Virus record (IMG/VR): IMGVR_UViG_2541047850_000005
Coordinates: 3,554-67,553 of that record
DNA length: 64,000 bases
From: a virus
Lineage: Duplodnaviria > Heunggongvirae > Uroviricota > Caudoviricetes
Strand: one strand, 5' to 3'
The position numbers and the translations under genes are program-made. The notes below the pieces were generated by a model. The model was not told the DNA's origin, ran no database searches, and saw nothing but the letters and a program-made list of their open reading frames with translations. Positions 3,452-22,843 of this stretch are shown here, piece after piece. Each line of letters starts with the position of its first letter. Position 1 is the first letter of the stretch.

Positions 3452-3604
3452 CACAACTCCGTAAACAACTTGTTTTCTCAATGTCGTAAATAATACCAGT
3501 AAGAAAACGGCTACAAAGCATATTGATCAGGTGCATGAGCGATATGCAGGTTCTTCCCTGCGGCTATAGAGAAATTAAGCCAGCAATGCTGGCTTTGGTT
3601 GGGA

Positions 3605-21410: not shown

Positions 21411-22005
21411 TTACTGCTTGTTATAAACAAAACCAATATCTTTCTTGTGAGGCATATCTGCTGCGGAAAAAGCTGCGATCTTCGCGAGTCGATCACATAT
21501 TTCATTTTCACGATGCCCGGCGTGACCTTTAACCCACTTCCAGCGAACATTATGTCGACTTGCGGCCTCATCCAGACGCTTCCACAGATCAACATTCTTT
21601 ACCGGTTTTTTGTCAGAAGTCATCCATCCATTGCGTTTCCACCATTTCATCCACTGTGTCATGCCGTTTTTCAGATACTGGCTATCAGAGTGCAAAATAA
21701 CGTTGCATGGATATTTCAAACGCTCCAGCCCGATAAGTGCCCCCATCATCTCCATGCGGTTATTGGTGGTGCTATGAAAACCATCTGAGAACTCGCGTTC
21801 CTCACCACGATACTGAAGAACGATACCGTAACCGCCCGGGCCACCCGGATTTTTAAGGCAAGAGCCATCACTGAAGATTTTCACGGTTTTAAGCTGGGGA
21901 TTGAACTCTACGACAGGCGTTGTGGGATTGGTACGGGGAGAATTTTTGTTTTTGGCTTTTTTGCGAGTTTTTGCTTGCGATCGGGCTGGTGTCTTCGTCG
22001 TCATA
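21411..22005 (-). CDS. rnhA: ribonuclease HI-like
   Basis: [22 protein letters not shown]…[10 protein letters not shown]…[18 protein letters not shown] are the RNase H DEDD-type motifs; start set at MTTKTPA after an AGGAG SD. Confidence 0.8.
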
Positions 22006-22588
22006 TAAACTCCTGAATCAAGCGCCGCGCCGATTTTTTTTTCCTCGCGCGTGCGCACACGCGTGCGTGTTAATAATTATTAAAATAAACAAATTACTTC
22101 CCAGAACAGGTTTTTATAAACCTGAACTGAACGAACGAAGTGAGTGAAGTTCACCTCGAACGAAGTGAGAGGTTGTCTTTTCAGGTAATACTCTCCCAGG
22201 GAGGTGAGTATAAAATTCCTCACCAACCTGGTCGTTTCATAACCTGAAAAGTTATGGTCTAAGTCTACTGCCAGCTTAGACTTGGGAAGTTATGGATGAC
22301 AGCACCCCAGAACCGAGATCTTCCCACACTTTATGAAGGGGAGTACTGGATTCAACCTCTCGAAACACCCCAGACTCGACAATCATAAAGTGACCCTTGT
22401 CTCTGCTCACTTTGGTTCCCCCTTCCCCGACACCTAAACGGCACCGGTTCTACGCTGGTAGTGAGCTTTTTAAACCTGACGCCAGTGACGCTTACCCCCA
22501 CCCATCAGGTCGAGCCTCCAGTCTACGACTGGAAACAATCAGATCTTAGCACTTACAATTCACTTTATGAATAGTTTGTACTTATCTA
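22006..22588 (-). other. ORF-free, structure-rich segment (candidate non-coding RNA)
   Basis: About 580 bp with no ORF of 60 aa or more on either strand in a densely packed region; several hairpins and tandem GAACGAAGTGAG repeats. Confidence 0.3.
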
Positions 22589-22843
22589 TCATTGTGATTG
22601 ATTATTTTCTCGACCATGTAGTTGAACATTCAAGGCAAACACCTCATTGATCAACTCACCTAAAAGCTGTTCAACAAGTTCGCGATGCTCCCCAAGATGC
22701 AAGCACTTAATTGCCCATTCGTACAAGTTGAAAGCCTGCTCTCGATCTTTCATCATTTCACGAGCCTTAGCCAGAAAATCGCTCTCTACGAGCGCAACGA
22801 CATTAGTCGGGTATGACATGTTGGTTTCCTTAAAGTGGTTCAT
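22589..22843 (-). CDS. hypothetical small protein (84 aa)
   Basis: ORF track. Confidence 0.4.
   Translation of the reverse strand: MNHFKETNMSYPTNVVALVESDFLAKAREMMKDREQAFNLYEWAIKCLHLGEHRELVEQLLGELINEVFALNVQLHGRENNQSQ

Follow-up and report, generated by a model that had tools for sequence, protein, structure and literature searches.

The stretch analysed here, called the window below, comprises 64,000 nucleotides of a caudoviricete genome (IMG/VR record IMGVR_UViG_2541047850_000005, positions 3,554 to 67,553); all coordinates without a locus handle refer to it. The element is a phage-plasmid of the SSU5/pHCM2 type, and the gap upstream of its RNase H gene (rnhA) very probably holds a structured RNA gene on the minus strand. 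One large non-coding RNA (ncRNA) of about 450 nt, referred to as family A, is strongly supported over several small ones. On balance, we favour a stand-alone gene whose pseudoknotted product would act as a regulatory or maintenance RNA of the lysogenic state. The locus region was 100% identical to that of Escherichia phage PhiR41_1 and 97-98% identical to those of phage Cyrano (pLF82) and its relatives. In the original prediction, which was made from the letters alone, positions 22006-22588 had been described as a structure-rich segment free of open reading frames (ORFs), and one or more ncRNAs, an origin or a packaging site had been offered as explanations.

The minus strand was predicted to fold with -167.9 kcal/mol (z = -4.1 against shuffled sequences). 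For 49 distinct close relatives RNAalifold predicted 135 pairs, of which 11 were compensatory; 99.6% of the cells were paired. Across these pairs G·U was found in 716 cells and A·C in 3; the constraint therefore acts on the minus strand as a single strand, and neither on the DNA duplex nor on the plus strand. Because the central helices were invariant among close relatives, distant relatives were needed, and a composite structure was assembled from two alifold runs and hand-checked helices on an 11-sequence alignment covering a wider diversity. This model contained 104 pairs in 16 helices, with 97.9% of the cells paired. Changes on both sides were seen in 38 pairs, compared with 20.8±2.5 in shuffled alignments (0 of 500 reached 38) and 2-7 when the structures were slid by 1-3 columns; 13 of the 16 helices carried one or more compensatory pairs. 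Covariation and conservation had been proposed as checks with the original prediction: covariation lay far above both controls, and the block proved to be the regional maximum of conservation.

These figures bear directly on whether the locus works as RNA at all. No RNA function would be needed if the locus were a double-stranded DNA site, whether pac/cos, a partition site or an array bound by protein, or if it held tiny protein genes such as the 44-aa CYRAN_81, and the palindrome upstream of the RNA (22571-22589) and a GC-rich box downstream of it do look like protein-binding DNA; one database record also annotates the 44-aa ORF. This explanation is very improbable, however, since neither the ratio of G·U to A·C nor the number of pairs changed on both sides is expected of duplex DNA sites, no iteron-like array was seen, and each ORF is broken by indels or stops in some clade. 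The packaging site, and with it any purely DNA-level site, gains no support: compensatory changes that keep G·U and not A·C are the signature of a single strand.

As predicted, 22006-22588 encloses no complete ORF of 60 aa or more. Two longer mechanical ORFs only clip the left edge: the GTG-extended rnhA frame (to 22058) and a 75-aa plus-strand ORF with a TTG start (21920-22147). The Cyrano annotation places the "hypothetical protein" CYRAN_81 inside the RNA core, but its frame is shifted or stopped by indels in five clades (L005, L032, L053, L066 and L068), and the indels of the clade alignment leave no other ORF intact on either strand. Tiny protein genes were rejected on these grounds. PGAP annotates nothing at the locus in the E. 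coli plasmid copies, and genome pipelines in general leave it blank or fill it with spurious ORFs (CYRAN_81; a 5'-extended RNase H in SSU5).

The helices of the composite model are listed in Table 1. Variation is centred on P1 and the hairpin tips, whereas the junctions and several loops are invariant, as is characteristic of a functional RNA with a compact fold. P1, for example, reads UUUCCAG/CUGGAGG as against GCUGGCAG/CUGCCAGC. P5 is invariant in close relatives and becomes AGGAAGG/CCUUCCU in L312-L314, giving three covarying pairs. The pseudoknot helix crosses both H3 and H8; with its 3' strand directly next to that of H8, the arrangement is an H-type pseudoknot. An alternative outer stem for P7, CUUUUCAGGU/ACCUGAAAAG, overlaps P6b and is partly kept (UUCAGG/CCUGAA vs UUCUGG/CCAGAA). 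A candidate long-range helix that would close the molecule joins CUGG (22104-22101) to the invariant CCAG (22458-22455); it never varies and so offers no covariation. All marks of the descriptive class "large complex-folded bacterial ncRNA" were found, namely a length of more than 300 nt, covarying helices, a pseudoknot and conserved unpaired nucleotides.

Several details of the original prediction could be placed on this structure. The hairpin AAGTCTA…TAGACTT is real and corresponds to P6. The repeats were said to be tandem; copies of GAACGAAGTGAG do exist, as two exact copies of CGAACGAAGTGAG at 22132-22144 and 22157-22169, but they lie 25 nt apart and are direct, not tandem, repeats. In RNA sense the first CUCACUUCGUUCG copy fills the 11-nt loop UCACUUCGUUC, and the second extends over the loop and 5' stem strand of the hairpin that follows. 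The repeat is a good candidate contact site, because it survives in divergent homologues (as CUCACUCCGUUCG / CUCACAUUCGUUCG in L312/L314).

In the clade-representative alignment the conserved core is sharply bounded, from about 22515 to about 22093. Between clades the core is 90-96% identical, compared with 77-82% for rnhA and 75-81% for the upstream gene. Against a Klebsiella phage-plasmid, 22101-22500 was the most conserved 400-nt block of the 23 kb that could be aligned (91.5% vs a median of 74.8%). The RNA segment was found in 687 PLSDB plasmids, almost all of them non-mobilizable (from Klebsiella, Escherichia, Enterobacter, Salmonella, Citrobacter, Cronobacter and others), in 12 phage records and in about 74 IMG/VR contigs. 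It is present in 232 of 5426 complete E. coli genomes (about 4%), nearly always on a plasmid of about 110 kb; E. coli chromosomes showed no similarity to the RNA, even in a distant-mode search. A metagenome scan yielded 60 loci and no new clades. One 19-mer match (L236), inside a structural gene of a high-GC phage, was dismissed as chance.

RNase H was a poorer guide to homologues than the small upstream protein (phrog_5343). Viral RNase H relatives of up to 49% identity, including loci L072-L080, had no such RNA upstream, and a scan of genome contigs with the RNase H protein returned only chromosomal rnhA (up to 62% identity). The small protein was found by tblastn in 728 plasmids, and its distant relatives led to loci L306, L308 and L311-L314, where the RNA occurs in divergent form (nhmmer, 504 to 51 bits); the covariance model of the core scored 77.7 bits in L306 (E = 8e-20). 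The Moellerella plasmid L301 has the small gene and no recognisable RNA. The RNA is specific to phage-plasmids of the SSU5/pHCM2 type. In the 70-kb contig L315 the 5' ~360 nt of the RNA are naturally deleted; there, at 1501-1900, a truncated small gene (62 aa) is fused to the last ~100 nt of the RNA, and box and rnhA are intact.

Transcription, a further check proposed with the original prediction, was assessed from published RNA sequencing (RNA-seq) of a lysogen. CYRAN_81 is listed as a "moron" with 12-fold expression over the prophage background in the LF82 lysogen (PMC9928086). In S1 Table of that work its log2(FPKM+5) values (FPKM, fragments per kilobase per million mapped fragments) are 6.8-6.9 in LB overnight culture, 9.0-9.3 in B1, 6.9 in B6, 8.2-9.0 in MB1 and 10.3 in MB6; over the ten samples CYRAN_81 ranges from 6.8 to 10.35, and its neighbours CYRAN_80 and CYRAN_82 (RNase H) from 2.6 to 5.8. 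The table gives codes only; B1/B6 were read as 1 h/6 h in medium and MB1/MB6 as 1 h/6 h inside macrophages, from the time course of the paper. The locus transcript thus exceeds either neighbour 12-40-fold in every lysogen sample, and its level shifts with the condition, being highest inside macrophages at 6 h and also high 1 h after dilution into fresh medium. With strand-specific covarying pairing, a conserved promoter and transcription above both flanks, the ncRNA option of the original prediction held, as one large RNA and not as several small ones.

A sigma-70 promoter was predicted directly upstream of P1, and from its sequence we infer a start near G22536. The extended -10 element TGnTAnnAT is kept in every clade, although the spacer and the surrounding sequence vary, and also in the divergent homologues L308 and L311-L314; the promoter scored just under the 9/12 cut-off of the consensus scan. 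U-rich tails occur at the 3' end of the RNA in most clades. A plus-strand promoter-like site (TGGAAA-18-TACAAT, 22530-22559) lies over the RNA 5' end and faces into the small gene upstream from its 3' end; if active, it would give a transcript antisense to that gene. The palindrome abutting the -35 hexamer is a degenerate copy of ATAGGTAAGTnnTTACCTAT, a 20-bp palindrome present at at least 11 intergenic sites of the window (12 matches vs 0.2 expected by chance). Its copies often have a -10-like hexamer or a terminator-like hairpin a few bases on, and it also precedes rnhA in the unrelated phage contigs L063/L064, which are without the RNA. It looks like a dispersed operator or promoter element of some phage regulator.

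No known family accounted for the RNA. In line with the original prediction, which could fit no canonical tRNA cloverleaf, ARAGORN found 0 tRNA or tmRNA genes in the window, and no tRNA or tmRNA model of Rfam matched. Rfam 15 (including C4, RNAI, CsrB/C, 6S, RNase P, GOLLD, ROOL, OLE, HEARO, self-cleaving ribozymes and riboswitches) gave 0 matches at the gathering score in the whole 64-kb window, only chance-level hits in the region at E up to 10, and no consistent matches to the divergent homologues. A sponge of the CsrB/RsmZ type for CsrA was rejected (7 GGA in 450 nt, mostly within stems), as was a type I toxin-antitoxin mRNA of the hok/sok kind (no conserved ORF on either strand and no hydrophobic candidate). 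A type III ToxI-like RNA was likewise rejected, since only two 13-nt direct repeats are present, 25 nt apart, and the genes around it encode Dam, a three-helix protein and RNase HI. Because no description was found in a literature search, family A is treated as a previously undescribed RNA family and family B, introduced below, as a second.

By function, the nearest systems are the immunity RNAs c4 of P1/P7 (RF01695), CA of N15 and CI of P4. The likeness lies in a temperate element living as a plasmid, in a promoter constitutively active in the lysogen and heading an operon that has to be kept silent, sometimes with antirepressor-like genes, in short repeated motifs and in discrete variants of related elements that do not match each other. 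Those RNAs are about 70-90 nt long, are processed from a leader and act by short complementarity within the same transcript, whereas the RNA of the window is five to six times larger, with 16 helices, a pseudoknot and no complementary target found, and the C4 model did not match it. Expression in the lysogen, one half of the usual description of c4-type RNAs, was seen; the other half, an antirepressor operon downstream (Ant/Rha), applies to some elements only. StxS-type by-product RNAs share a promoter active in lysogeny and a transcript that stops short of the lytic genes downstream; their short product builds up and is able to act in trans (PMC7547250). StxS is short, whereas the deep structural conservation of a ~450-nt RNA points to selection on the RNA itself. 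By form, the closest are GOLLD, ROOL, OLE and raiA, which have 400-800 nt, many covarying helices and pseudoknots, a location in mobile elements, conservation above that of neighbouring genes and no assigned biochemical function. They differ in that their Rfam models did not match, and in host range: Enterobacteriaceae instead of mainly Firmicutes and others, with a very narrow range and one syntenic slot. By analogy, then, the RNA stands near the c4/CA/CI immunity RNAs or an StxS-like terminated transcript in function and near GOLLD, ROOL and OLE in form, and is a member of none of them.

The slot after the small gene is occupied by a different RNA in family B, comprising 30 Klebsiella phage-plasmids (including pCAV1099-111 and pCRKP18622-1) whose small protein is 47-50% identical to that of the window. 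Their gap of 570-650 nt after the small gene holds a different element of ~400 nt that has a hairpin at its 5' end, a hexamer resembling a -10 element and a terminator of canonical form (UUCGGCC...GGCCGAAG-U7); six sequences gave 129 predicted pairs, 12 of them compensatory, and no consistent Rfam match was obtained. Homology between the families was rejected, as both nhmmer and the covariance model of the family A core failed to match family B. Either two independent events filled the slot, or the RNA changed abruptly between the families, within each of which it is near-frozen. The pattern is typical of specificity determinants, among them immunity or incompatibility RNAs.

The framing of the locus by RNase H in the original prediction turned out to be incidental, the conserved partner being the upstream small gene. 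The RNA is directly followed by rnhA in the canonical family, but not in the divergent homologues. In the Buttiauxella plasmid L311 (2895-4231) a UvrD-like helicase and an OLD/TOPRIM ATPase, a Gabija-like pair, follow on the opposite strand; Tad2-like (anti-Thoeris) genes lie downstream in L312 (2438-2743, immediately) and L314 (3110-3234), and another gene in L313. Conversely, the phage contigs L063/L064 encode an RNase H 80-89% identical to that of the window with no RNA upstream. What stays together is therefore Dam, the small gene and the RNA, followed by a variable accessory region that in various relatives holds the Gabija-like pair, Tad2-like, RNase H, TerB/TciA-like or Ant/Rha genes. 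In L302 and L304 the family B RNA is followed by a gene on the other strand, which is not rnhA.

This variability weighs on the possibility that the RNA is a long cis-acting 5' leader of the rnhA or accessory transcript, a riboswitch-like or protein-responsive attenuator of which the abundant species would be the terminated or processed form. Leader and downstream genes would share their orientation, no strong sigma-70 promoter for rnhA lies in between, the 3' end is without a textbook terminator, alternative pairings can be drawn (P6b vs the outer P7 stem; P5 vs the 3' UGGGAAGU), and the RNA is far more abundant than the downstream ORF, as in attenuated operons. We nevertheless consider a leader unlikely. 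The downstream gene is variable and, in L312-L314, has sigma-70-like hexamers of its own after the box (read by eye); the gene that follows in L311, L302 and L304 is encoded on the opposite strand; a canonical terminator is present in family B; and no known riboswitch or leader family matched. In L312-L314 P5 covaries but CUUCCCA can no longer pair with the 3' UGGGAAGU, and the P5 switch was dropped, as it is not conserved there.

Between RNA and rnhA lies the box mentioned above, of which the original prediction had noted the CGCG-rich element beside a T run; both are real. In plus-strand terms the alternating purine-pyrimidine tract spans 22043-22069, the T run is a T9 at 22034-22042 and the GC-rich 12-mer GCGCCGCGCCGA occupies 22022-22033, all kept in all relatives. 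About 25 nt alternate strictly between purine and pyrimidine and are GC-rich and prone to Z-DNA, with a GTGCGCAC palindrome. The core (C)GCRCGCGAGR and the A-rich run are retained in L312-L314, where no rnhA follows. An RNA hairpin was rejected, since the box folds no better than shuffled sequences (z = -1.3). At one symmetric position two clades differ, with U·G and C·A respectively, and this suggests that the box may be a duplex-DNA site.

The box and the RNase H gene are also what would recommend an RNA-primed origin. In ColE1, RNA II runs about 500 nt from promoter to A-run and its RNA-DNA transition reads GGAAAAA/CGCC; T4 oriF/oriG, the T7 origins and the mitochondrial light-strand promoter (LSP) follow the same logic. 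Here the transcript would enter the AT-rich spacer and the GC box and form a persistent R-loop, and the RNase HI encoded downstream would cut at the A-run to leave a leading-strand primer. The resemblance to RNA II extends to a structured transcript of several hundred nucleotides followed by an A-run and a GC-rich element, to a similar promoter-to-A-run distance (about 500 nt), to an RNase H, here next door in the canonical family, and to synthesis in the plasmid state. Moreover, the box (...GAGG-A9-UCGGCGCGGCGC) may resemble the ColE1 transition, the spacer is conserved in AT-richness and not in sequence, like a DNA-unwinding element, the box accompanies the RNA even without rnhA, and the locus lies within a replication and nucleotide-metabolism module. 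The origin option of the original prediction was weakened nonetheless and is now improbable. Homologous RNAs occur without RNase H downstream, and these plasmids are typed as IncFIB RepA replicons. No GC-skew inflection was found at 22 kb, skew being a test of limited power in phages. There is no sign of an antisense partner of the RNA I type: no plus-strand promoter is directed into the RNA, the sole promoter-like site over its 5' part points away, and Rfam RNAI did not match. In addition, there is no sequence similarity to RNA II, the rnhA transcript is 12-40-fold less abundant than the RNA, and family B ends in a canonical terminator.

For the role of the RNA, a specific mechanism ranked first, although it is held only tentatively: a regulatory or maintenance RNA of the lysogenic state that forms a barrier in cis and possibly makes contacts in trans. 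Host RNA polymerase would probably start at the conserved extended -10 promoter, and the transcript would accumulate while the element is a quiescent plasmid prophage, to end or be trimmed before rnhA, near the invariant UUCUGGGAAGUAA and the U-rich tract. In cis, the RNA would separate the silent replication genes upstream from the variable accessory genes downstream (RNase H, TerB-like, Ant/Rha, Tad2-like) by terminating transcription from its own constitutive promoter. In trans, contact with a partner RNA or protein may be made through exposed invariant elements, namely the CUCACUUCGUUCG repeat on the two 3' hairpins and the P5 internal loop. In P1 and N15, the best-studied phage-plasmids, a promoter-proximal RNA reportedly keeps such operons off. 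The proposal was placed first because a lysogenic RNA with its own promoter heads accessory genes, and because of this precedent in P1 and N15.

Several points weigh against it. The expression values come from a gene-level table, for which library strandedness is not established and no ends were mapped. The consensus scan showed no canonical intrinsic terminator at the 3' end of family A, the promoter-adjacent palindrome could instead place the RNA in a lytic regulon, and antirepressor-like genes lie downstream in some elements only (Ant in SSU5, Rha in L300). No target or partner of the RNA was found: complementarity did not rise above chance in the 64-kb window (RNA locus and first ~15 nt of rnhA masked; rnhA leader inspected by eye), and a target search against E. 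coli chromosomes gave no significant complementarity. The deletion in L315 implies that the RNA may not be essential for carriage. Finally, known immunity RNAs have 70-90 nt, and nothing explains 450 nt and a pseudoknot for this role.

Size and fold would also suit a "moron" RNA directed at the host or at competitors, whether as a sponge or decoy, as a defence or anti-defence RNA, or as the RNA subunit or ribozyme of a ribonucleoprotein (RNP), for the pseudoknot and the invariant unpaired segments are typical of protein-binding or catalytic RNAs. Expression in lysogeny, with the peak inside macrophages at 6 h and the high level 1 h after dilution into fresh medium, agrees with such a role, the slot borders a variable region with anti-defence and defence genes (Tad2-like, Gabija-like, TerB-like), and near-invariance across hosts fits a conserved host target. 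This reading has little probability in our view, about as little as a leader. No partner is known, the GGA motifs are too few for a CsrA sponge, ToxI-like tandem units are absent, and no ribozyme family matched. The adjacent small protein is modelled by AlphaFold as an acidic three-helix bundle (predicted local distance difference test, pLDDT, 80) with no resemblance to RNA-binding proteins; it had no Pfam match, and the model no PDB match.

Table 1. Features of the RNA locus and of related loci; positions refer to the window unless a locus handle is given.
Feature	Position	Strand	Remarks
Structured ncRNA gene, family A, ~450 nt	22085-22536	minus	from comparative structure, strand test, conservation and RNA-seq; both ends approximate
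Predicted sigma-70 promoter of the RNA	22543-22571	minus	-35 TTCATA 22571-22566; 17-nt spacer; TG 22551-22550; -10 TAAGAT 22548-22543
Imperfect palindrome ATAGATAAGTACAAACTAT	22571-22589	minus	overlaps stop codon of upstream gene, abuts -35; degenerate copy of ATAGGTAAGTnnTTACCTAT; operator-/activator-site-like
P1, 5'-terminal hairpin	22514-22536	minus	sequence varies between clades, pairing retained; 3 pairs with compensatory double changes
P2, long hairpin ACCUGAUGGGUGG...CACUGGCGUCAGGU	22474-22510	minus	5/13 pairs covary
H3, CUCAC 22465-22461 with GUGAG 22410-22406	22406-22465	minus	3/5 pairs covary; also encloses G-rich strand of pseudoknot
H3a, hairpin inside H3	22447-22427	minus	3/5 pairs covary
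Pseudoknot helix, AAGGGGG 22424-22418 with UCCCCU 22342-22337	22337-22424	minus	2/6 pairs compensatory (AU to GC, GC to AU); 100% of cells paired
H8, CACUUUAUGA 22392-22383 with UCAUAAAGUG 22336-22327	22327-22392	minus	7/10 pairs covary; encloses two small helices 22370-22348
P5, UGGGAAG/CUUCCCA	22283-22326	minus	conserved internal loop AUCUCGGUUCUG; tip hairpin P5a 22307-22294
P6, hairpin AAGTCTA...TAGACTT	22257-22281	minus	6/10 pairs covary, with compensatory changes
P6b, hairpin CAUAACUU/AGGUUAUG	22256-22238	minus	composite model
P7, hairpin	22231-22196	minus	variable tip loop; composite model
Two adjacent 3' hairpins	22124-22172	minus	one CUCACUUCGUUCG copy each, 22169-22157 and 22144-22132 (RNA sense)
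Invariant 3' motif UUCUGGGAAGUAA, then U-rich tract	22082-22104	minus	likely 3' end; U-rich tract 22093-22082
Downstream box	22022-22081	minus	AT-rich variable spacer, alternating purine-pyrimidine ACACGCACGCGUGUGCGCACGCGCGAGG, A9 run, UCGGCGCGGCGC; ends ~10 nt before rnhA ribosome-binding site
rnhA	21411-22004	minus	Pfam RNase_H, 1e-44
Small upstream gene, 84 aa, phrog_5343	22589-22843	minus	immediately upstream of the RNA
ATAGGTAAGTnnTTACCTAT copies, ~20 bp each	3057, 16423, 21395, 23609, 33158, 37857, 41364, 43318, 48104, 56345		in intergenic gaps of minus-strand operons
Family B copies	L299:3775-4225; L300:3775-4228; L302-L305		
Divergent family B copies	L309/L310:2281-2627		

All genes flanking the RNA locus are on the minus strand, in a long replication and nucleotide-metabolism module (nrdAB, thyA, folA, a 3'-5' exonuclease and Dam). 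The phage RNase HI (21411-22058) shares ~60% identity with enterobacterial RnhA over residues 38-192; at the N terminus it is extended by ~37 aa rich in lysine and arginine. The RNase H coding sequence in the SSU5 RefSeq record (NC_018843 79147-79911, 765 nt) starts far 5' of the conserved ATG and enters the box and the 3' region of the RNA; its start is therefore probably mis-annotated. The published expression table also lists the "hypothetical protein" CYRAN_43 of Cyrano (OV696614), at 723-fold over the prophage background in lysogeny and far above the repressor; this may be a further RNA or a transcript of the toxin type.

Phage-plasmids of the SSU5/pHCM2 type are reported to carry resistance genes (PMC9600943). 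In these elements the RNA marks the boundary of a variable accessory-gene region and is raised inside macrophages, and the published "moron protein" CYRAN_81 is, on the present evidence, really an RNA. Large, intricately folded bacterial ncRNAs are rare and have historically been ribozymes, ribonucleoprotein cores or unusual assemblies. It is possible, if rather doubtful, that a new class of large pseudoknotted functional RNA (ribozyme or RNP core) is present in clinically widespread phage-plasmids of Enterobacteriaceae, with a modular slot after phrog_5343 for at least two unrelated RNAs and an activity without counterpart among known bacterial RNAs. If so, that activity would be maintenance of the plasmid prophage, control of an accessory or anti-defence gene island, or action on the host. 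The comparative structure is in hand, together with a second, analogous RNA (family B) for contrast, and the RNA offers a handle on how phage-plasmids control lysogeny, replication or accessory genes.

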